Origin: Candidatus Lokiarchaeum ossiferum | GTDB taxonomy: Archaea; Asgardarchaeota; Lokiarchaeia; Sigyniarchaeales; Promethearchaeaceae | NCBI GenBank assembly: GCA_025839675.1 | Contig: CP104013.1 | Location: 2,913,121 to 2,977,120 of the forward strand | DNA length: 64,000 nucleotides | Direction of reading: 5' to 3' | Part shown: positions 6,957-58,393 of the stretch, piece by piece | Position numbering within the stretch: the first letter of the stretch is position 1 | How the letters are laid out: each line of letters begins with the position of its first letter | Notes under the pieces: model-generated | Databases searched by the model: none | Told to the model about the DNA's origin: nothing | What the model saw: only the letters and a program-made list of their open reading frames with translations | Translations under genes and position numbers: made by a program

Positions 6957-7038
6957 TTAAAATTAAACTCGAATAAAGAAGTTATCAATAAATAAGCTTT
7001 TTAAATCCATACGACAAAATAAAACACTAGAGAAAAAA

Positions 7039-20633: not shown

Positions 20634-20859
20634 AAAAAGAAAGAACTATAATAATTTTATTTTTTTTTATCTTGGTCTGAAATTTGATTGGTAGTTGGAG
20701 TCAAACCTTTAAAACTACTCTCCATCCTATCTATACGCAAATTAATTTCATCTAACTTTTCTAAAATTTCATAAAACCGGGATCCGAGACTAGCAAAGTG
20801 ATTTTTCGACAAAATTACACCTAATTATATCTTGGAGTTTATCTATATAAGCCTAAGCA

Positions 20860-26751: not shown

Positions 26752-27723
26752 TTATTCCATCAATTTTTTCGATATTAGCCACTGAAAAGCAGATAAAACC
26801 CCAATATTTTCTTTGACTGACACGAGACTCATAGAATGGGGCATTGGTAATTGGTTTACATTAAACAACTGGGAAAATTTTTTGATTAAAGATTCAGATT
26901 TTTCTTTCTCGACTAAATCAGATTTATTTAATAGGATTAATATGGGGATGTGATTACTTTCAAAACTGGCTGGTGTAGGAAAATATTGTTGGATAACTCT
27001 TTCAAATTCTTCTTTAAATTCAAAATCTCGCGTTTCTGACGATGAAACATCCACAACATATATGATTGCATCAGGTTTATGACAATCTTTAAACCAAGTC
27101 TGTCGAATTGCCTTTTGACCCCCCACATCATAAATTTGAAATTGAAAATGCTCAATGGCAGCCCGGAGAATTTGAGTACCTAAAGTAGGGCGGATCTTTG
27201 GAGAGAAAGTCCCATATCTTAACAATTCAATTATTGAAGATTTTCCAACAGCTTCAATTCCTAAAAAGAGTAATTGGCCATAAGGGTGGTCTCCTTCAAA
27301 TTCTTCAAATTTATTGATTGCTTGACGTAAGAATCGATCGATCTTAGATATCTTCATTTGAATGATTGGGGAGGTTTTATTCTTATGTGAAAATATCTCT
27401 AAAATGTGAGGAATGTTTTTTATTTGTTCAGAAAGATTCTGTAACTCCTTTCTCCAGTTAAAAATTGTATGCTCTTCGGTCAATATTACTGAAATGAGGA
27501 GTAATTCATATCCAGTTCGAGCAATTCCAGAGGGAATACTAAATTTAAAATTAAGATATAATGCTTCTTCGTGCTTGACTTCAAAAAAGGGAGCATCTAA
27601 ATTCAAATCAAAAAGCTTAATTACAATATTTTTATCGGAATCATTAATATTTGAGGGAACAGCATTTAAAATCCACGGACCAGCCATTCGATCATAGTAA
27701 CTTACAAGTATTTTAACTGGCAA
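26752..27723 (-). CDS. Arf-like small GTPase with roughly 150-aa N-terminal extension domain
   Basis: 323 aa. G1 'GIEAVGKSS', Arf-type G3 'YDVGGQ', G4 'LNKSDL'. The N-terminal roughly 150 aa have no GTPase motifs. Confidence 0.75.
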   Translation of the reverse strand: MPVKILVSYYDRMAGPWILNAVPSNINDSDKNIVIKLFDLNLDAPFFEVKHEEALYLNFKFSIPSGIARTGYELLLISVILTEEHTIFNWRKELQNLSEQIKNIPHILEIFSHKNKTSPIIQMKISKIDRFLRQAINKFEEFEGDHPYGQLLFLGIEAVGKSSIIELLRYGTFSPKIRPTLGTQILRAAIEHFQFQIYDVGGQKAIRQTWFKDCHKPDAIIYVVDVSSSETRDFEFKEEFERVIQQYFPTPASFESNHIPILILLNKSDLVEKEKSESLIKKFSQLFNVNQLPMPHSMSLVSVKENIGVLSAFQWLISKKLME

Positions 27724-40991: not shown

Positions 40992-41145
40992 TATCTCTTT
41001 TGATCCTTTTCGATCGCTTTTTTTTGAAAGATTGGGGAAATCCTAAATCGATCAATTCACGATGGTGGGTTGGGATAAGCTTATAAATATGAAGATGACA
41101 TTTTCGATCATATTGATTTTGTCGATGGATAAAATTAGAAGATGA

Positions 41146-42099
41146 ATGATAATGGTTACAATAGCAGATGGAAGATATTCTCTTCCCAGTTCTTACCTTT
41201 ATTCCAAAACCCAGCATGTTTTCTTGGATAAAGTGAAAAAAATTTGTGGTTTAGATCAAATCGGCTATGCTTTTCTTAAAAAGCCAACAGAAATGCAAAT
41301 ACTAGTTGATAAGGAAGTAAAGGTGGGAGAACCCTTTGTTGCAATAACAACGGATAGAGGGATTTCAACCTTAAATTCACCCTGTTCGGGCATATTGAAG
41401 ACAAAGCATGATGATGCTTTGGAAAAAATGGAAAATGATACCTATGAATATGGTATTCTTGAGTTTGAAGAAATAACTGAAATTGATACTGCATTAATTA
41501 CTGGAGCAGACATTGAACCTTGGGCTAATCATGAGGTGCGGTCATTATTAAAAAATGAATATAGCTTCAAGGTAATTTTAACCGGAGATTCAGCAGTTGG
41601 AAAGACGGCCATTAAAGTCCGCTTTACAGATGACTATTTTAAACAAGACTTAAAGACAACTTTGGGAGTCGATTTTGGTTCAAAAGAATTGAAGTGCGAA
41701 TATTTAACAGAAGATATTCTATTTTCTGGGGTGTATAGATTTACTTCAAAAATGAACGTGTGGGATGCTGCAGGGCAAAGTCATTATGACAAAATTCGAG
41801 GCATGTACTACCGAGATGCTAAAGGAGCACTTCTGGTGTATGATGTGAACAATCCTGTATCATTTGATAATTTAGATAAATGGATTGAAGAATTAGATGA
41901 AAATTTGGGGCATGTGCCTACTTTACTCATTGGGAATAAAACAGATTTGGAGAGATTGGTACCACTTGAAAAAGCCTTGGAATTTGCGAAAAACCATGGT
42001 TTTCTTTATGCAGAATGTTCAGCAAAAACGGGTGATAAAGTTGAGAATGTTTTTCGGAAGTTAGCCATAGAAATCTACAAAAAAGAAGAAAATTTGTAA
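41146..42099 (+). CDS. Rab/Ras-like small GTPase with roughly 140-aa N-terminal extension domain
   Basis: 317 aa. G1 'GDSAVGKTA', G3 'WDAAGQ', G4 'GNKTDL', G5 'CSAKTG'. The N-terminal roughly 140 aa have no GTPase motifs. Confidence 0.8.
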   Translation: MIMVTIADGRYSLPSSYLYSKTQHVFLDKVKKICGLDQIGYAFLKKPTEMQILVDKEVKVGEPFVAITTDRGISTLNSPCSGILKTKHDDALEKMENDTYEYGILEFEEITEIDTALITGADIEPWANHEVRSLLKNEYSFKVILTGDSAVGKTAIKVRFTDDYFKQDLKTTLGVDFGSKELKCEYLTEDILFSGVYRFTSKMNVWDAAGQSHYDKIRGMYYRDAKGALLVYDVNNPVSFDNLDKWIEELDENLGHVPTLLIGNKTDLERLVPLEKALEFAKNHGFLYAECSAKTGDKVENVFRKLAIEIYKKEENL

Positions 42100-44551: not shown

Positions 44552-45070
44552 TTAAAGAGCTTCAATATGCACAAGATATTCAAATAATAACTCGAACATT
44601 TTTGGGTCAAATTGCTCATAAATTGTCTGATTAGTCCGGTTTTGGGCGATTTGTTCTTTAAACTCATCATAAAACATATCCAATCCAATTTCATAATATT
44701 TTGAGATATGATCTTTGACCATATGAGGACGAAACATCATTGTTAGAACCAAGCCATGCTTCGCAACAATATTCATTTCAATATCTAAACCTTCTATTAA
44801 AATACGCTTGATTTTACCGACATTTTCTTCCCCAAATACATTTAGAGCGGCGATAAAATTACTCATTAAAGGAAGTTTTAATCCATCTTGAAATGATTTG
44901 GAATACAAAATATCCCCTCCATCTCGAGCTACAAATATTCCCACAAGATACTTTTCCAAAATTTTTTGAAATTTCACATTTATTGGAACGTAGGGATGAT
45001 GCGAGGACAGAAAAGAAGTTTTTGTATTTTCCATAAAAATCACCTTGGCGATATGATTCGTTTTGATCAA
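44552..45070 (-). CDS. roadblock/LC7-like (MglB-like) small protein, paralog B
   Basis: 172 aa. Near-identical core to 42136..42615 (see that entry). Confidence 0.45.
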   Translation of the reverse strand: MIKTNHIAKVIFMENTKTSFLSSHHPYVPINVKFQKILEKYLVGIFVARDGGDILYSKSFQDGLKLPLMSNFIAALNVFGEENVGKIKRILIEGLDIEMNIVAKHGLVLTMMFRPHMVKDHISKYYEIGLDMFYDEFKEQIAQNRTNQTIYEQFDPKMFELLFEYLVHIEAL

Positions 45071-45167
45071 ATAACCGTTTGATCAAATAATTGTTTGATC
45101 AATATATAAAGTAAACGCAATGTTTACATGGGGATAACTCGGAAATAGAATCCAAAAAAAATGACTT

Positions 45168-47368: not shown

Positions 47369-47817
47369 TTCTATATGATTGTTATTTATTTGTTTAACTC
47401 AAAAACCTTAGCTCAAAACATTGTTTGTGATTTTACTCAAAAAAAGAAATTTTAAAAATGAAGGATTAACACCTTAGTAAAAGTTGTCTACTCGATAATA
47501 ATTATTAACCGGATGCATATAGAAATTAGTCGGATAACATATCTTAACAATGGAATTTAAATAGGAAGGAGTCAATTTCAGAATTAAGGCGAAATTTTAA
47601 TTATAAACTTTTCCTTCCTATAAGAACTTTATTGAGTAAATTTTATAAAGATCATGGTCAATTAAGCACCATATTTAAAGTATTAACCGCTTACTTTTAC
47701 GAGAATAACTTATCCGTTAACAAGCCAATTTATATACGATCTCGACAAAAATAGATTTGTGTGTGAATCATTCAATTCAAGATGATGAATGAATTTTTTT
47801 GTGAGGGATAAACTAAA
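47369..47817. promoter_or_regulatory. candidate replication origin (oriC) upstream of orc1/cdc6, with ORB-like inverted repeats flanking an AT-rich stretch
   Basis: 449-bp AT-rich non-coding region. TTAWCCG-type elements occur at about 47503-47515 (attattaaccggatg) and 47528-47540 (agtcggataacat, inverted), and again at 47680-47694 (tattaaccgcttac) and 47707-47721 (cttatccgttaac). They bracket a roughly 60-bp A/T-rich stretch (47590-47650). The region sits next to orc1/cdc6 and the PolD genes. Confidence 0.35.
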
Positions 47818-49107
47818 ATGTTCGATATTGATGATTATTTTACCGATTTTATGAAGAATGAAAAAATTTTTGAAGATCGCGATGTATTACGCCCGGAATT
47901 TATACCATCTATTTTACCACATCGAGATTTGCAAGTGAAGCGAATTGCCGAAATCGTGGCGTGTACCCTTAAAAATTCTATGCCTTCAAATATTTTCATT
48001 TTTGGTAAAACCGGAACAGGAAAAACAGCCGTTGTAGGTCATGTTAGCGAACGGTTAAATTATCAATGTCGAAAAGCGGGAATTACAGAATCTCAATGGA
48101 TATTTTTAAATTGCCAGGAGGTCAATACAGGATATCGGATCTTAGCTAAAATTTGTGCGGAGATAGACCCTAACGATCCCGTTCCAATTGCAGGATGGCC
48201 CATTGACGTCATTTTCGATAAGCTCGTAGAAAAACTGGATAAATTTGTCGAAGGAATATGTTTTCTTGTTTTAGACGAAATAGATATTTTAGTTAAAAAT
48301 ACTAAAAAATCGCATGATGTCCTATATAACTTGGCCCGTATCAACTCTCGCTTGAAAAAAGGGCGAGTGAACCTAATTGGCATTTCTAATGTATTAAATT
48401 TCAAAAGTGCCTTGGATCCACGGGTTCTTAGCAGTCTTGGAGAAGAAGAAATTGTGTTTCCAGCATATAATGCCATGGAACTATCAGATATTTTACGCCA
48501 ACGTGCCCAAAAAGCTTTTAATGAAAATGCACTCGACGATAGTGTGATACCTCTCTGTGCTGCCTTGGCGGCAAAAGAGCATGGAGATGCGCGAAAAGCA
48601 TTAGATTTACTTCGTAAAGCCGGAGAATTAGCTGAACGCCGCAATACACTCACAGTAACCTCTGATCATGTTTATTTTGCCCAAGCAGATATCGAAAAAG
48701 ATAAAATGCAAGAATACTGTGAAGCTTTGCCACTCCAAAGTAAAACTATTTTATTAAGCATCTACCATATGCAGAAGTACAGAGGGGAACAAGCCATAAT
48801 TACTGGAGATATCTATAATGCATATTCTGAAATTTCCACTATGGTTCCCGGTCTAAATAAACTTACCCAACGGCGTGTATCAGAATTAATCCGAGAATTA
48901 GATTTATCCGGGATGGTAAATGCCCGCGTAAAATCAAATGGACGTTATGGTCGGACCAAATTTATCAAGCTAAATATCCCCCTTAATGATACATCAAAAT
49001 ACTTAAAAAATGAACGCCGCTTAAACGAGCTAATCAATTATCGCCCCATTTGTGTAGGACAAAAAACGATCCAGCACAATGGAACAAAATTTCGCAAGTT
49101 AGCATAA
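47818..49107 (+). CDS. orc1: Orc1/Cdc6 replication initiator
   Basis: 429 aa. Walker A 'GKTGTGKTAVV', Walker B 'LVLDEIDIL', sensor regions and a C-terminal winged-helix domain. Confidence 0.9.
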   Translation: MFDIDDYFTDFMKNEKIFEDRDVLRPEFIPSILPHRDLQVKRIAEIVACTLKNSMPSNIFIFGKTGTGKTAVVGHVSERLNYQCRKAGITESQWIFLNCQEVNTGYRILAKICAEIDPNDPVPIAGWPIDVIFDKLVEKLDKFVEGICFLVLDEIDILVKNTKKSHDVLYNLARINSRLKKGRVNLIGISNVLNFKSALDPRVLSSLGEEEIVFPAYNAMELSDILRQRAQKAFNENALDDSVIPLCAALAAKEHGDARKALDLLRKAGELAERRNTLTVTSDHVYFAQADIEKDKMQEYCEALPLQSKTILLSIYHMQKYRGEQAIITGDIYNAYSEISTMVPGLNKLTQRRVSELIRELDLSGMVNARVKSNGRYGRTKFIKLNIPLNDTSKYLKNERRLNELINYRPICVGQKTIQHNGTKFRKLA

Positions 49108-49141: not shown

Positions 49142-49825
49142 TTATTCAAAGAACCACAATGATTTTTGATAAACGATATTCCGTAGAAGCTCAATGGTTT
49201 TTTCACTGTCTTTAACAAACAATTTCATGAAAATACGAGCAATGTGAATGCAAAACTGCTTTTGGGATTTTCGTAGAGAATTATATTCTGGACAAGAGTG
49301 AGAAATGGATCGGGCTTTCACATCAATTTTAAAGCGATATGACTGTGAAATTCCGCCATCATCTTTACTTTTAACAATTCCTTCAATTTTATCGTCAAAT
49401 GCAACTAAATCCAGTGAAACGGCGGAAGATCTTATTTTCCCGGCTTTTTCAAGAACTGAAACATCAACCAAATCCGACAGGAGAGCTTGATATGTCATGC
49501 TTGGAGTGATATCAATTGGAGGCCGCCATGATTGAGCTAATGCTGCAGCCATGGTTTTTGCTTTTAAAATCCCTTTTTCTTGCCAAGTGAGAAATTCCTG
49601 TTGTAATTCATCACTTAAAGAAATCGACTCGCTTTCTTTATTTTCAGAAAGATATTCCAGATGTATTGCTTGTTGAACTATTTTTTTTGTCTTCTCCAAG
49701 GGGGCGAGAAATAAATCGAAAGCAATGAAATTATATAACTCATCAACATTAATTTCGGGTTGATCAATAATTTTCCACCAGTGAAGGACGATATTTTTGA
49801 GATCCGAAGGAATTGTAAAGGCCAT
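49142..49825 (-). CDS. hypothetical protein in replication-gene neighbourhood
   Basis: 227-aa ORF between orc1 and PolD DP1; no recognisable motif. Confidence 0.5.
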   Translation of the reverse strand: MAFTIPSDLKNIVLHWWKIIDQPEINVDELYNFIAFDLFLAPLEKTKKIVQQAIHLEYLSENKESESISLSDELQQEFLTWQEKGILKAKTMAAALAQSWRPPIDITPSMTYQALLSDLVDVSVLEKAGKIRSSAVSLDLVAFDDKIEGIVKSKDDGGISQSYRFKIDVKARSISHSCPEYNSLRKSQKQFCIHIARIFMKLFVKDSEKTIELLRNIVYQKSLWFFE

Positions 49826-49849: not shown

Positions 49850-51793
49850 TTACATATCAGCAGCTAAATCAATAACTTGGGGAGTAAATTTGCCATTAAC
49901 ATTAATAATGGTCGGTTTCCCAAAATCAGGTTCAATTCCCAGACTTTTCTGGAAATCAGTTTGACCTTGGAAACAACCTGAGTTGATTGTTGTGATGCCA
50001 TGGTAAGTTCCCACGCCATTTTTATGGAGATGCCCGGTATGCAAAATATCTGGCAGGGTACTCATGATCATCCAATCTTCAAGTAAGGGGGCAATTTCAG
50101 TTTTTTTCCCATATGTAGGAGTTAAATCACGCGCTCGAATAAATTCATTCATTGTTTTACAAGGATCTTCGTGAGACATCCCTGGAATGGACATGTTCAT
50201 ATCAATCAACGAAGTTCCATGAAACATCTGGACCTTGATTCCGTGAAGACTAACCATAGTTGGGCAACCTACCATTGATATACCCATTTCATACATTGCG
50301 GGAGCCATTTCTTTCGAGATTGCAGGATTGGGCACAGCCTTCCGAACAGCATCATGATCACCAGGGGAAGCAATTATTTGAATATAATCGGGAATTTGAG
50401 AGAGATATTCAGCGGTGGCCTCGTATTGTTTATAAATATCTTTAATAAATAAATGTTTATCTTGATTTGGATAAATTCCAATTCCATCAACAATATCTCC
50501 AGCAATACAGAGATATTTGATTTTACCCGCTTGCTTTACTTGTTTATCCGATCCCATATTACAATTTAAATAATCAACGAATCGATTCCATTCTTTTTCC
50601 AGCCAATATTTACTTCCAAAGTGAAGATCGGATACAAAACAGATCGATAGGTCTTCTTGCGGATAATTTATGGGATGGGTATTGGGAGAATCAGGAAAGA
50701 TAATCTTATTGATCATGATAATGCGAGAATTCGTTTTTTTATTCACACTTAAATATCCATCCACAATCACTACATGGTCGGGTAATAGATAATTCATCAA
50801 ATCATAAAGTTCTTTAGGTTCTTGTCGCACTAAAGTCATACACGTTCCTGTTAGATCTTCAAATTCTATTAAATAATTCCGTTTTGAAGTTTGGCGTTTT
50901 TCAACTACCATCCCCACAAATTTCACTTCAACTGAATTTTCCAAGCGATTAATCATGTTGATATCCAAGAGACTATGACCTTCAGGACGTTTCTTTAAAA
51001 TTTTAGTCAATTTATGAAACTTATCCGCTTGGAGTCCGACGAATTCATCGAGTTTTCCATCGGTGAACATTTTTCCAGTAGGATCTGAAATGATTTCCAC
51101 TTCTGCATTATATTCTGAAGCTAATGGGCGAAAAGTTGAAGTTGATTGACGGATTTGAACACGTTGATAACTTTTCTTCTTTTCTTCCCGAATTCGCAGA
51201 ATTTCGGTTTCGTCCATCCGCCCTTTACTCGAAGATGGAGTCTCAAGATTCGATTCAGGAGGGAGTTGTTCCGAAACAACTTTATCATCCCCTAGATCTA
51301 TGGTAGGAAGAGGCTTTAATACTTTCTGACCTGGAGGATTTTGAGAAATACTTGGAAACTCGGGAGAATCAGGTGGTTCAGGAATATCATTCAAATCGTC
51401 TATTGGAATCGATTTTTTATTTTTTTTTCCTCGATCTGGAACGAGTACTGATTTTTTTTTAATAAGATTGAGTGAATTCTTGGAATTACTGGTTTGAGAA
51501 TTCAAGTTTGTTTCATTGCTACTATTATGATTAGAACGGCCTGAAATATCTTGTGGATGAATGTTTGGGGTAATTTTTGATCCATATTCTTGCAATAATA
51601 TTTCTAAAGTGACATGCGAATTAAAAATCGGTGAGAATGATATTTTTCGGATTAAATCTTCGAGTTCTTGCGCATTAAATTTCAAATCTTCAATGTAACA
51701 CAACGCTTCAGGGGAAATATTAATACGAGAAGCGAGAAATTTCTGAAGAATACTTTCGAGGGGAAATCCTTGAGGTGTTTGCGCAATGGTCAT
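49850..51793 (-). CDS. polB: DNA polymerase II (PolD) small subunit DP1
   Basis: 647 aa. The C-terminal calcineurin-like phosphoesterase fold carries 'VSDLHFG', 'GDIVDG', 'GDHD' and 'GHLH'. An OB-fold precedes it. A roughly 120-aa S/N/P/K-rich low-complexity linker follows the N-terminal domain. Confidence 0.9.
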   Translation of the reverse strand: MTIAQTPQGFPLESILQKFLASRINISPEALCYIEDLKFNAQELEDLIRKISFSPIFNSHVTLEILLQEYGSKITPNIHPQDISGRSNHNSSNETNLNSQTSNSKNSLNLIKKKSVLVPDRGKKNKKSIPIDDLNDIPEPPDSPEFPSISQNPPGQKVLKPLPTIDLGDDKVVSEQLPPESNLETPSSSKGRMDETEILRIREEKKKSYQRVQIRQSTSTFRPLASEYNAEVEIISDPTGKMFTDGKLDEFVGLQADKFHKLTKILKKRPEGHSLLDINMINRLENSVEVKFVGMVVEKRQTSKRNYLIEFEDLTGTCMTLVRQEPKELYDLMNYLLPDHVVIVDGYLSVNKKTNSRIIMINKIIFPDSPNTHPINYPQEDLSICFVSDLHFGSKYWLEKEWNRFVDYLNCNMGSDKQVKQAGKIKYLCIAGDIVDGIGIYPNQDKHLFIKDIYKQYEATAEYLSQIPDYIQIIASPGDHDAVRKAVPNPAISKEMAPAMYEMGISMVGCPTMVSLHGIKVQMFHGTSLIDMNMSIPGMSHEDPCKTMNEFIRARDLTPTYGKKTEIAPLLEDWMIMSTLPDILHTGHLHKNGVGTYHGITTINSGCFQGQTDFQKSLGIEPDFGKPTIINVNGKFTPQVIDLAADM

Positions 51794-52046: not shown

Positions 52047-55000
52047 ATGCCCGTCGTAATGTCCGAGAAAAGTAAAAAATATTTTGATAAAATTGAAGAA
52101 GATGTCAATAAAATTTATGAATTTGCCAATAAAGCTCGTGCTATAGGAATTGATCCAGCTCCTGAAGTGGAATCACCTCCTGCCCGAGATATGGCAGGAC
52201 GGGTTGAAAAGTTAGTTGGACCTGAAGGAATCGCCCAATATTTGCGGGAGTGGAAGGAAGCAGGAGAAGATCAAGATGAAAGTTGTTTTCGAGCAATGGA
52301 TTGGATCATCGATGGGAAATTTGGAAAGCAATATGATCCCAATGAAGCGGTTGATCTAGCAATTCGTGTCGCTTTAGCAATAAAAACGGAAGGAGTTGTC
52401 TCAGCACCCTTAGAAGGTATTGCAAAAGTCGTCATTCGAGAAAATTTAGCAGGGGGAGAACCGTACTTAGCACTTTATTTTGCAGGACCAATTCGAGCAG
52501 CAGGGGGAACAGTCCAAGCTTTTGCAGTATTGTGTGCTGAACACGTTCGTCGAAAAATGGGGATCGCAGAATGGAAAGCAACCCCCGATGAAGTGGGACG
52601 ATTTGTTGAAGAAGTGAAACTTTATGATCGAATTATGAACTTGCAATATCCCTCCACACAAGAAGAGTTAGCCTTTGCTGTCGAACATCTGACGATTGAA
52701 CTTAATGGAGATGCAACAGAGACCCAAGAAGTTTCAGCTTATCGAGATTTGCAACGTATTGAAACGAATTTTGTACGGGGAGGACCTTGTTTAGTTTTGA
52801 ATGATGGGGTTTTGCTTAAGTCTAAGAAAATTTTACGTGTTATTGATAAGCGGAAGATCGAGGGGTGGGATTGGCTCCGAAAATTAAAAAAATTGGCTCA
52901 TGCAGATACTAAAAAGAAAATAGATGAGGACGGGAAAGATAAAGCTAAGGATTATGGAGGAGACACTTACAAAGGTAAAAAGATCATTGAGGAAGAAGAA
53001 AAAGTTGAAGTTATAGCTGAATCCCCAGTGCAAAAACGCCAAGAATACTTGAATGAAAAAAATCCGCCTCTCAATAAATTCATTGCAGACATTATTGCTG
53101 GTCGCCCCGTTTTTGCTTATCCCTCTCGAATTGGAGGTCATCGCATAAGATATGGACGATCACGCAATACAGGTCTTGCCGCATGTGGCACGCATCCATC
53201 CCAAATGATTCTATTAGAGAGATATATGGCTATTGGCACCCAGATCCGAATAGAAAGACCGGGGAAAAGTGGGTCTACGATGCCTGTCACATCTATCGAA
53301 CCACCAATCGTTTTAATGAAAAATGGCGATGTAAAGCAACTTTGGGACATAAAGGAAGCTGCTGATATTGCGGACAATCGATTAACGGCTAAAATTCTCT
53401 TTTTAGGAGATATGCTTTTTGGGTATGGAGAATTTGCAGAAAATAATCACACAGTTCTTCCATCAGGCTATTGTGAAGAATGGTGGGCAGTGGAATTAGA
53501 AGATAAAATTCAAAAGATGACCGCTGACGGAGGCACACCCTTTACCGATCTTCCAGAAGATCTATCTCAACCAATAATTGAAAAAATGATCACAAATCCT
53601 TTTGATGAAATTCCCAATGGTCGCCAAGCTCTTGAACTTTCACGTAAGTATGATGTGGGAATCCATCCTCGCAGTTTAGATCATTGGGGAAATATTAATG
53701 CGGTTGATCTTTTGGCAATTCGGAAGCAATTTGGTTTAGGACTTTGTAAATTATTCAAAGTTGCCAATACATCTGATCTTTCTATTGAAGCGCCATCTTT
53801 AACCCAATTAGAAACTAAGTTCCAGGATGGATTTGACCTTCCCATAACTTCCGAAACCAAAAAATTCTTTGAAACCGCTTACACCCCCCATCAAAATTAC
53901 GATTCATATATACATATTGATCCAAACCGTGCGATTATTTTTTATGAGCTCTTTGGATTTGGGACATCATCCGTTTATACTTCCGAAGCAGAACAGAAAG
54001 CTCCCGAATTGACGGCATTGGATCTATTTCCTTACCTTACTTCTATCCGAGTTAATGATAAAGCCCCCCACTACATGGGAAGTCGGATGGGCCGCCCCGA
54101 AAAAGCAAAAGAGCGCAAAATGCGCCCTCCTGTTCATGGTTTATTTCCCATCGGACATGATTCCAAACTTCAACGGAGCTTTCAATCCGCTGCAGGAGTA
54201 GCCTACATTGAAGTGGAATTGGGACAAAAATCATGTCCAAAATGTAATTCCAATACATTTTTAAACAAATGTCCAAAATGTGGAACCTTGACCAACTTTA
54301 AAAAAATTTGTTCCCGTTGTAACAAACTGTACGATCAACAAGACACCGAATGTCCCGATTGTAATAGCTTTTTATCCAGTACTTCCCTAAAAAAAATCCC
54401 TTTCAAGAAATATTTTGAAGTGGCCGCCAGTCATATTGCCAAGACCATCCCCTCCTTGAAAGGCGTTAAAGGTATGACTTCCGAATACAAAATTCCAGAA
54501 CCGATCGAAAAGGGTATTCTACGAGGAATTCATGATGTATATGTTTATAAAGATGGTACAATTCGAGCCGATGCTACTGATATACCCTTAACCCATTTTA
54601 CTTGCCGTGAAATCAATACATCGGTCGAGAAAATCCTAGAACTCGGGTATGATCTTGATATCTATGGGAAACCCATTACCGATGAAAATCAGGTAATCGA
54701 GATAAAAGTGCAAGATGTTCTCCTCACCCATCACTTAGGTGATTATTTCGTCAAAGTGGCTAATTTTGTGGATGATGAACTTCATTACCTCTACAAACAA
54801 CCTAAATTTTATAATGTAAAAGATAAATATGATCTTATTGGCCACTATATGGCAGGCTTAGCCCCCCACACTTCGGCCGCTATCATTGGACGGTTAATTG
54901 GCTTTACATATGCGGAATCAGGCTATGCTCATCCTTATTGGCACGCCGCGAAACGTAGAAACTGTGATGGTGATGAAGACGGAATCATGTTGCTCCTGGA

Positions 55001-55721
55001 ATGTTTGCTGAATTTCTCAATGTATTATCTCCCTTCTTCTTTGGGAGGCAAAATGGATGCACCTTTAGTCGTTTCTTTGCTACTGGATCCCTTAGAAGTA
55101 GATGGAGAATCTCATAACGTCGATTATGCAAGCAAATATCCTCTCCGGTTTTATGAAGAAGCACTTACCTACAAAAAACCTAGCGACATGGACAGTTATA
55201 TGGTTCTTTTCAAACATAAACTCCGTACCGAAGCGCAATTTGAAGGGTCAATGTTTACCCACCCAACTTCTTCGATTAATCTCGGGCCTCGAAAATCTGC
55301 CTATACGACACTGGGTACAATGACTGAGAAAATTGAATCGCAATTGTACATGGCAAAAACAATTACTGCGGTTGATGCAAAGGATGTGGCCCGAAAGGTC
55401 ATCTCCTCCCATTTTGCTCCAGATATTTTGGGAAATCTTCGCGCATTCTCTACCCAAGGGTTCCGATGTATAAAATGTGGCGCGAAATATCGTCGAGTGC
55501 CTATATCGGGAAAATGTAATAAATGTCGAGCCGGAAAATTGCTCATGACAGTCCATGCGGGGGGGGTCATCAAATATCTTCCAAAAGCTCAAAAACTTAT
55601 TAAAGAATTTGATTTAGGGGACTATACTGAACAACGCTGGCAAATAATCGAAAAAAATGTAATGTCACTGACCAATAATCCCCGTGTGAAGCAAAAATCA
55701 ATCAAAAGTTTCTTCAAATAA
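52047..55721 (+). CDS. polC: DNA polymerase II (PolD) large subunit DP2
   Basis: 1224 aa, no intein. Internal Zn-finger cluster 'CPKCNSNTFLNKCPKCG...CSRCN...CPDCN' and C-terminal Zn finger 'CIKCGAKYRRVPISGKCNKCRAG'. Divergent from DP1 with a 253-bp shared promoter region. Confidence 0.9.
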   Translation: MPVVMSEKSKKYFDKIEEDVNKIYEFANKARAIGIDPAPEVESPPARDMAGRVEKLVGPEGIAQYLREWKEAGEDQDESCFRAMDWIIDGKFGKQYDPNEAVDLAIRVALAIKTEGVVSAPLEGIAKVVIRENLAGGEPYLALYFAGPIRAAGGTVQAFAVLCAEHVRRKMGIAEWKATPDEVGRFVEEVKLYDRIMNLQYPSTQEELAFAVEHLTIELNGDATETQEVSAYRDLQRIETNFVRGGPCLVLNDGVLLKSKKILRVIDKRKIEGWDWLRKLKKLAHADTKKKIDEDGKDKAKDYGGDTYKGKKIIEEEEKVEVIAESPVQKRQEYLNEKNPPLNKFIADIIAGRPVFAYPSRIGGHRIRYGRSRNTGLAACGTHPSQMILLERYMAIGTQIRIERPGKSGSTMPVTSIEPPIVLMKNGDVKQLWDIKEAADIADNRLTAKILFLGDMLFGYGEFAENNHTVLPSGYCEEWWAVELEDKIQKMTADGGTPFTDLPEDLSQPIIEKMITNPFDEIPNGRQALELSRKYDVGIHPRSLDHWGNINAVDLLAIRKQFGLGLCKLFKVANTSDLSIEAPSLTQLETKFQDGFDLPITSETKKFFETAYTPHQNYDSYIHIDPNRAIIFYELFGFGTSSVYTSEAEQKAPELTALDLFPYLTSIRVNDKAPHYMGSRMGRPEKAKERKMRPPVHGLFPIGHDSKLQRSFQSAAGVAYIEVELGQKSCPKCNSNTFLNKCPKCGTLTNFKKICSRCNKLYDQQDTECPDCNSFLSSTSLKKIPFKKYFEVAASHIAKTIPSLKGVKGMTSEYKIPEPIEKGILRGIHDVYVYKDGTIRADATDIPLTHFTCREINTSVEKILELGYDLDIYGKPITDENQVIEIKVQDVLLTHHLGDYFVKVANFVDDELHYLYKQPKFYNVKDKYDLIGHYMAGLAPHTSAAIIGRLIGFTYAESGYAHPYWHAAKRRNCDGDEDGIMLLLECLLNFSMYYLPSSLGGKMDAPLVVSLLLDPLEVDGESHNVDYASKYPLRFYEEALTYKKPSDMDSYMVLFKHKLRTEAQFEGSMFTHPTSSINLGPRKSAYTTLGTMTEKIESQLYMAKTITAVDAKDVARKVISSHFAPDILGNLRAFSTQGFRCIKCGAKYRRVPISGKCNKCRAGKLLMTVHAGGVIKYLPKAQKLIKEFDLGDYTEQRWQIIEKNVMSLTNNPRVKQKSIKSFFK

Positions 55722-58273: not shown

Positions 58274-58393
58274 GCACATGTAGCCAAGCTGGTCGACGGC
58301 GCTGGACTTGAATTGATCTCTTCAATTTTGAAGGATCTAAAGATATCCAGTAAGCTTACGCTTTCGTGGGTTCGAATCCCCCCGTGTGCGCCA
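58274..58393 (+). tRNA. tRNA-Ser (anticodon UGA) with 32-nt intron at position 37/38; CCA encoded
   Basis: Acceptor GCACATG/CGTGTGC (one G-U pair), D-stem GCC/GGC, anticodon stem CTGGA(58302-58306)/TCCAG(58346-58350), loop C-T-TGA-A, then an insert at 58313-58344. Long variable arm (class II), T-arm GTGGG-TTCGAAT-CCCCC, discriminator G, CCA at 58391-58393. Confidence 0.65.

Follow-up and report, generated by a model that had tools for sequence, protein, structure and literature searches.

The intergenic gap directly upstream of the initiator gene orc1/cdc6 in Candidatus Lokiarchaeum ossiferum is for certain a conserved control region of orc1. The gap (47369-47817; 449 bp, 26% GC) lies in a stretch of 64,000 nucleotides that we call the window (assembly GCA_025839675.1, contig CP104013.1, positions 2,913,121 to 2,977,120 of the forward strand), and is flanked by a minus-strand SIS-domain gene and by orc1. 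It contains a strong promoter, upstream elements, a hairpin in the 5′ untranslated region (5′ UTR), a second promoter-like copy and a directional array of short boxes. An earlier note on this DNA had proposed the gap as a candidate replication origin, in which inverted TTAWCCG-type repeats flank an AT-rich stretch next to orc1. Our analysis gives an even chance that the gap functions in the transcription control of orc1 only, which would explain every conserved element as well as their direct orientation, and finds this reading and that of an origin fused to the orc1 promoter about equally likely.

A near-invariant promoter upstream of orc1

The comparison covers 15 orthologous Lokiarchaeia loci with 96-65% Orc1 identity, plus one locus at 50%, and motif counts and hairpin statistics refer to 12 lineages. 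In every relative the gap upstream of orc1 measures 310-534 bp, whatever gene precedes it, be it the SIS gene on the minus strand, a membrane-protein gene inserted on the plus strand, a glycoside hydrolase gene also on the plus strand or a PIN/MazE pair. Throughout the relatives the block orc1 - 227-aa gene - DP1 - DP2 is kept, DP1 and DP2 being the small and large subunits of PolD.

Within the gap, a segment that we term unit B (47678-47752) is near-invariant in the 15 loci down to 65% Orc1 identity, and a hidden Markov model (HMM) of this unit matches every locus at E <= 1.5e-11 (best 4e-17). Over 47679-47770 the near-invariant alignment segment of all loci reads AATAACTTATCC(R)TTAACAA - N5 - TTTAWATA - N3 - ATCTCGACAAAAAT - ..TGTGTGTG. 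The parts of the core promoter are a TATTAACCG box located 46 bp upstream of the TATA box, the GAATAACTTATCCGTTAACAA element with WTAAC pentamers at 47705 and 47717, the TATA box itself and a CGACAAAAAT proximal element, and they are followed by a 5′ UTR of ~60 nt. In most lineages the box of unit B is kept as TATTAAC or TATTAAT at -130 to -175. The motif TTTAWATA fits the archaeal TATA consensus and is found at a sensible distance from the orc1 start codon. The TATA box (AATTTATATA), with a purine-rich flank on its upstream side, is conserved across the orthologous loci. Unit B reads as the archaeal TATA-box core promoter of orc1, with a transcription start site (TSS) predicted some 25 nt past the TATA box, at about 47757-47760, for which the proximal element and the hairpin further downstream (both described below) give indirect support.

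We found CGACAAAAT just after TATA-like boxes at 7012 (cold-shock gene; 7003-7020) and, on the minus strand, at 41119 (41110-41130), and also at 20806 (20800-20816) without a clear TATA box. Because it recurs after the TATA-like boxes of unrelated genes, CGACAAAAT would be a generic core-promoter element rather than an initiator site, and may be common in the proximal part of Lokiarchaeum promoters. For the same reason TCGACAAAAA was rejected as an Orc1 site. An E2F-like site (TTTSSCGC) was likewise rejected, since TATTAACCGC matches 6 of the 8 positions only and the CGC is not kept in relatives.

The orc1 5′ UTR is predicted to fold into a hairpin (Table 1), which is found in most of the 12 lineages (L001-L018 equivalents) at a near-constant offset, starting 18-28 nt past GACAAAA, with stems that vary by lineage (TCATTCA/TGAATGA, TTCACTCAAA/TTTGAGTGAA, CTTCCTT/GAGGAAG, CCCGCGAGT/ATTTGCGGG and others). 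The 12 per-lineage folding z-scores, combined by hand, give a Stouffer Z of about -4.7, and the best-stem score of 7.46 compares with 6.13 +/- 0.34 in shuffles (0/500 as high). RNAalifold on a MAFFT alignment of the hairpin region predicted no pairs, and a covariance model of the hairpin found just its six training sequences; because the alignment and covariance tools gave nothing, the support comes from per-lineage folding and from the stem statistics. A hairpin at a near-constant offset fits a transcribed 5′ UTR, and it may be a regulatory RNA element.

Two tandem units form a directional box array

Unit A (47500-47563) is a weaker copy of unit B. The two composite units stand in tandem, ~175 bp apart and in one orientation, with the layout TATTAACCG-[RATAAC-W-TATC]-[TTAACAA]-[TATA box]. 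Their gapped self-alignment (ATAACATATC--TTAACAATGGAATTTAAATAGGA vs ATAACTTATCCGTTAACAAGCCAATTTATATACGA) has 28/35 identical positions with a 2-nt indel, and its score of 28 compares with a null of 21.1 +/- 2.6, with 6/300 shuffles as high. The exact arrangement TTAACAA-N5-TTTAWATA (TTAACAANNNNNTTTAWATA) has just two matches in 64 kb, at 47544 and 47717, on one strand and 173 bp apart. Furthermore, the unit-B HMM has weak secondary matches on the plus strand at the relative position of unit A in at least 9 lineages, and the similarity of A to B is slightly higher within a locus than across loci (p = 0.036). In distant lineages unit A resembles a full promoter, with TTATATA followed by CGACCAAAATGA in L018 and with TATATAGCACGCCG in both units in L016, while unit A of L. 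ossiferum is without the CGACAAAA proximal element. An additional box, box 0, is kept as ATTAAC at about -350 in L009, L001 and L008, and a secondary conservation peak is located at 47604-47653.

In an unbiased k-mer enrichment over the distal upstream regions of the 12 lineages, unit B excluded, TATTAA was found 42 times against 5-6 expected, ATTAAC 20 times against 2-2.6 and TATTAAC 14 times against 0.2-0.3. Compared with the remaining sequence of each locus, TATTAAC is 21-fold enriched in the orc1-upstream gaps (p = 2e-14). First-order Markov nulls predict 2.05 copies of TATTAAC, 6.6 of ATTAAC and 7.8 of TTAWCC, where 14, 30 and 24, respectively, were observed, and for none of these three did any of 300 simulations reach the observed number. 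All three cores are kept in position across lineages. TTAWCCG, which the earlier note had taken as the repeat, occurs 6 times against 1.2 under the Markov null and matches in 3/12 lineages, and judging from these relatives its exact form is essentially specific to L. ossiferum. On this comparison, the conserved repeated core is TATTAAC/WTAAC, not TTAWCCG.

The boxes have a preferred strand. WTAAC is found in the window 8 times on the plus and 2 times on the minus strand and across lineages 49 times in the sense and 16 times in the antisense direction (p = 5e-5), with no C/G asymmetry that would explain the bias. Taken together, units A and B carry eight WTAAC/TATTAAC boxes on the sense strand of orc1, which form a directional array.

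The four strings on which the origin proposal was built are all present where they had been placed, and the TTAWCCG matches at 47505 (+), 47531 (-), 47683 (+) and 47710 (+) represent 4 of the 22 in the 64 kb. Their clustering is indeed beyond chance, with a local Poisson P of ~1e-5 and a scan-statistic P of 0.008 for any 449-bp window, for a motif chosen post hoc. Of the two inverted pairs that had been described, the first is inverted and the second is a direct repeat. The elements seem inverted because element 2 (CGGATAA) corresponds to the left half of RATAAC-W-TATC in unit A and element 4 (TTATCCG) to its right half in unit B, and the four elements are best read as partial views of two direct composite units.

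Transcription control or replication origin

Transcription control would account for all the conserved elements, and the sequence itself does not require an origin. The boxes would then be operator sites through which a sequence-specific DNA-binding protein tunes orc1 transcription, and this protein could be Orc1 itself, by autoregulation, or a dedicated winged-helix factor such as the 227-aa protein. Orc1/Cdc6 autoregulation is known at other archaeal cdc6 promoters. The directionality of the boxes would suit promoter-upstream operator arrays better than pairs of origin recognition boxes (ORBs). Several points weigh against a role in transcription only. With more than 300 bp, the conserved upstream region and its box array are unusually large for an archaeal promoter, the conserved region remains even next to upstream genes that run in the direction of orc1 and need no promoter in the gap, and no gene that unit A could transcribe is apparent (the searches with Rfam and for small ORFs being negative). 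Furthermore, an origin adjoins the Orc1-1 orthologue in nearly all archaea studied (PMC7617429, PMC1904270), and the literature allows origins without ORBs, as only one base is contacted specifically by Orc1-1 and discernible ORBs are missing from many archaea (PMC3089459); missing ORBs are therefore not fatal to an origin.

The alternative that survives best, and to which we give somewhat less than an even chance, is that a true replication origin next to orc1, with recognition boxes of a non-canonical kind, is fused to the promoter of this gene. In such an origin the TATTAAC/WTAAC arrays of the two units would serve as binding sites for Orc1, the AT-rich spacer between the units (47567-47677) would be unwound, and Orc1 bound at unit B would also autoregulate its own gene. 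Consistent with this, the gene directly downstream of the gap encodes an Orc1-1-type initiator with a recognition helix and a wing that match those of DNA-bound proteins from A. pernix and Sulfolobus, the orc1-DP1-DP2 synteny is as at the Thermococcales oriC (PMC1904270), and the long conserved gap is retained regardless of the neighbouring gene. The enrichment of TATTAAC is also strong and specific, two box clusters flank the most AT-rich 60-mer, and the archaea without discernible ORBs cited above leave room for such an origin. The earlier note would have given up the origin if the skew minimum lay elsewhere on the replicon and the repeats were not conserved upstream of orc1 in relatives; as the boxes are conserved there, these grounds for giving it up do not arise.

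The canonical layout on which the earlier note had relied, ORB and mini-ORB repeats flanking a DNA unwinding element (DUE), did not hold. A search with the ORB consensus, as that note had suggested, was negative: the ORB core TCCAGTGGAAA is not matched in the gap even when 2 mismatches are allowed, its counts in the window are at chance level, TTCC-N4-GAA (invariant in Pyrococcus) is absent from the gap, and no ORB-like or mini-ORB core, looser regular expressions included, was found in the 12 lineages, although the DNA-contact residues of Orc1 are conserved. The region 44-60 kb has no other ORB-like or repeat-rich region. ORB-like matches in dp1 (51707 and 51756) were rejected as an ORB cluster, being coding sequence (GFPLE, NISPE) at chance level. 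One of the two units, moreover, reads as the promoter of orc1, of the type with a TFB recognition element (BRE) and a TATA box, and the boxes are direct, not inverted, around the AT-rich spacer.

The sole good inverted repeat of the gap (Table 1) is not conserved. An inverted repeat conserved around the AT-rich spacer was rejected, the similarity of the arms within a locus being no better than across loci (permutation p = 0.64), and the apparent inverted-repeat resemblance among relatives arises because TATA-like boxes are self-complementary. The two pairs of elements had been said to bracket an AT-rich stretch of roughly 60 bp; an 83% AT 60-mer does lie between them, but the distance between the pairs is ~140 bp instead of 60. 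In the window at least 15 other 100-mers have a lower stability than this stretch, which looks ordinary for the L. ossiferum genome and tells to some extent against an origin. So does the composition of the 64-kb window, where GC skew, GC skew at third codon positions (GC3) and AT skew, corrected for gene strand, have no switch at the gap (47.6 kb). Complete Lokiarchaeia genomes have no bidirectional GC-skew pattern (PMC11291895), and skew is therefore unlikely to settle the origin question.

It is improbable, in our estimate, that unit A instead drives transcription across 47588-47700, either of a short non-coding RNA missing from the annotation or of a long alternative leader of orc1, in which case the semi-conserved blocks at 47604-47653 would belong to the transcript. 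The likeness of unit A to a full promoter in L018 and L016, its conservation where no upstream gene needs a promoter and the secondary conservation peak argue for such a transcript. Against it, Rfam gave nothing above chance in the gap, the small open reading frames (ORFs) there are TTG-start and low-complexity only, with none credible or conserved, and no covarying structure was detected; unit A of L. ossiferum is without the proximal element, and individual unit-A HMM matches are weak (E = 0.3-7). Finally, we consider it barely credible that the repeats beyond the basic promoter are chance similarity in AT-rich intergenic DNA: the A/B repeat is modest in the window alone, TTAWCCG was picked post hoc with its few lineages, and self-complementary TATA-like sequences do create apparent inverted repeats, but this reading is largely refuted by the comparative data, as boxes and modules hold their position across 12 lineages that are not near-identical strains (65-82% Orc1 identity), no Markov simulation reached the counts of the three cores and the strand bias is significant.

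Features and genes of the locus

Coordinates of the elements described above and of the neighbouring genes are given in Table 1.

Table 1. Elements of the orc1-upstream gap and genes of the replication block (positions in the window)
Feature	Position	Strand	Evidence
Distal part of the gap	47369..47460	-	conservation profile near 0.05-0.18; segment missing in relatives with other upstream genes
Box 0, AAGGATTAACACCTTA, ATTAAC box	47461..47476	+	13/16 positions match 47678-47693
Unit A TATTAACCG box (element 1 of the earlier note)	47500..47511, TATTAACCG at 47503	+	11/12 identical to 47678-47689
Unit A GGATAACATATC (element 2 of the earlier note, opposite strand)	47532..47543	+	direct counterpart of unit B GAATAACTTATCC
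Unit A TTAACAA-N3-AATTTAAATA, putative second, weaker BRE/TATA-like module, oriented as orc1	47544..47563	+	
Perfect 10-bp inverted repeat ATAGGAAGGA / TCCTTCCTAT	47561-47570, 47612-47621	.	41-bp AT-rich spacer; L. ossiferum only
Most AT-rich 60-mer, candidate DUE	47592..47651	.	83% AT, top 0.7% of 60-mers
Unit B TATTAACCG box (element 3 of the earlier note)	47678..47689, TATTAACCG at 47681	+	repeat search; enrichment
GAATAACTTATCCGTTAACAA, putative orc1 promoter upstream element (contains element 4 of the earlier note)	47703..47723	+	alignment of 15 loci, conservation 0.8
Putative orc1 TATA box AATTTATATA	47727..47736	+	TTTAWATA columns invariant in 15 loci
ATCTCGACAAAAAT, promoter-proximal element between TATA box and predicted TSS	47739..47752	+	invariant in 15 loci
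Predicted orc1 5′ UTR hairpin	47766..47794	+	stem TCATTCA (47768-47774) / TGAATGA (47786-47792), then T7 run
orc1/cdc6, Orc1-1 type	47818..49107	+	Pfam Cdc6_lid + Cdc6_C; TIGR02928; structural relatives
227-aa conserved protein between orc1 and dp1	49142..49825	-	synteny in all loci; UniRef name 'SWIM-type domain-containing'
PolD small subunit DP1	49850..51793	-	Metallophos match; DNA_pol_E_B in orthologues; synteny
PolD large subunit DP2	52047..55721	+	E 1e-98 to 1e-130; intein-free copy

The divergent SIS-domain gene presumably has its 5′ leader and its promoter in the distal segment of the gap, and we infer that the TATA-like TTTTTAAAATTT on the minus strand (~47447-47459) belongs to this promoter. 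In one sub-lineage a gene for a predicted membrane protein of ~280 aa separates the SIS gene from the region upstream of orc1 (L002 3671-4519, L003 4833-5666, L014 1866-2690), and the orc1 gap starts directly after its stop codon, with a ATTAACGTGTTAAT palindrome.

The position of the gap directly upstream of orc1/cdc6 and the presence of DP1 and DP2 nearby, both claimed in the earlier note, are borne out by the gene assignments of Table 1. Orc1 scores 384.6 bits against TIGR02928 (cutoff 181.3), among solved structures it comes closest to A. pernix ORC1 (2v1u, E = 1e-96) and S. solfataricus Cdc6-1 (2qby_A, E = 2e-92), and in its winged-helix (wH) domain the match to the DNA-bound proteins covers the recognition helix (TQRRVS) as well as the wing (GRYG). 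The Orc1 of the window is identical to the protein on two closed chromosomes, including CP163304 (strain B36), where it lies at ~3.249 Mb of 6.27 Mb; this position was rejected as origin evidence, since position alone proves nothing, and chromosome coordinates were not used because the DP2 of the window is without the intein of CP163304. DP2 is intein-free, with 1224 aa, in the window and in one metagenome assembly (L004), and reaches 1696 aa in CP163304 (a closed genome, L005) and in L009, a relative at 96% identity, starting from about 7230 in both, with an Intein_splicing/LAGLIDADG insertion in the catalytic domain. The DP2 intein is a presence/absence polymorphism among close strains.

The 227-aa protein is identical to NEF87_002497, and the position of its gene between orc1 and dp1 is constant in relatives with 96% to 50% Orc1 identity. 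Pfam, NCBIfam and PDB sequence searches gave no match. In its AlphaFold2 model (pLDDT 72.6) the N-terminal part folds like a winged helix and the C-terminal sheet carries an invariant SWIM-type motif, H176-x-C178...C192-x-H194; a Foldseek search with the model gave weak matches to winged helix-turn-helix regulators, none at E <= 1e-3. The protein is a candidate DNA-binding partner for the replication module.

Elsewhere in the window, two small GTPases of the Ras/Arf family carry N-terminal extensions of ~140 aa (41146-42099 on the plus strand, 26752-27723 on the minus strand); such GTPases are typical 'eukaryotic signature' proteins of Asgard archaea. A Ras-family gene is syntenic two genes upstream of orc1 in L010 and L011. 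A tRNA of 117 nt at 58274-58390 (+) was detected with Rfam (40.7 bits), is absent from the ARAGORN output and probably contains an intron, as is common for tRNAs in Asgard archaea. At 45062-45102, where a short gap separates the first SIS-domain gene from the gene of an uncharacterised 172-aa protein (both on the minus strand), the 16-bp unit TTTGATCAAATAACCG is present in 2.6 copies with overlapping palindromes (TTGATCAAA), an array that looks like an operator for a dimeric regulator.

Significance and comparison with known systems

In the literature searched we found no description of an Asgard replication origin or of the elements reported here. A candidate origin next to orc1 is the default expectation, and such a finding as stated is therefore unsurprising; what is new is the corrected anatomy, together with defined, testable boxes in a cultured Asgard archaeon. 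As Ca. L. ossiferum is cultured, the gap, with its two modules and defined boxes, offers a concrete target that can be mutated. More specifically, the gap could be an ORB-less Asgard origin in which a directional TATTAAC/WTAAC array, in two tandem units fused to the orc1 promoter, is read by the Orc1-1-type initiator, possibly together with the 227-aa protein. Judged from the sequence, this model is doubtful; if true, this would be the first case in which the cis-architecture of a replication origin is defined for an Asgard archaeon. If it is a promoter only, the gap still defines conserved cis-elements and a 5′ UTR hairpin controlling orc1 expression.

The closest arrangement is that of the Thermococcales oriC (Pyrococcus abyssi and P. 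furiosus, oriC-cdc6-dp1-dp2), where, as here, a non-coding region lies directly upstream of a single Orc1-1-type gene (PMC1904270, PMC4640148), the PolD DP1 and DP2 genes lie downstream of the initiator gene (PMC1904270), and AT-rich segments and clusters of short repeats are conserved within the order (PMC1904270, PMC4640148). In Pyrococcus, however, the repeats are mini-ORBs of 13 bp and ORBs of 34 bp whose TTCC and GAA cores are invariant, and two ORBs make up an inverted repeat (PMC1904270), whereas the Lokiarchaeum boxes are TATTAAC/WTAAC and mostly co-oriented. Furthermore, in Lokiarchaeum a gene for a wH/SWIM protein of 227 aa stands between orc1 and dp1, and no second box cluster was found in dp1.

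At oriC1 and oriC2 of Sulfolobus solfataricus, whose ORBs and mini-ORBs are bound by Orc1-1, the gene of an Orc1-1 orthologue is adjacent and the key wH residues are conserved, as in Lokiarchaeum. The initiator promoter and the binding sites likewise share one gap, the sites being candidates here. Lokiarchaeum differs in having no ORB consensus and no inverted ORBs flanking a DUE, a difference that is not decisive (PMC3089459).

Methanothermobacter thermautotrophicus, with arrays of 13-bp mini-ORBs and cooperative binding of Cdc6-1, has many short boxes by the initiator gene, as here (PMC1904270). The Lokiarchaeum box is unrelated, as judged against the ORB core only, and its conserved core is 6-7 bp long. 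By analogy, cooperative binding to box arrays in the style of M. thermautotrophicus is an attractive model for units A and B.

Finally, the gap resembles a regulated archaeal BRE/TATA promoter with operators, with which it has in common the TTTAWATA motif, a proximal element that also occurs at other promoters of the window, a 5′ UTR hairpin and directional upstream boxes. Compared with such promoters, the conserved upstream region of more than 300 bp and the tandem promoter-like module give the control region of orc1 an unusual extent.

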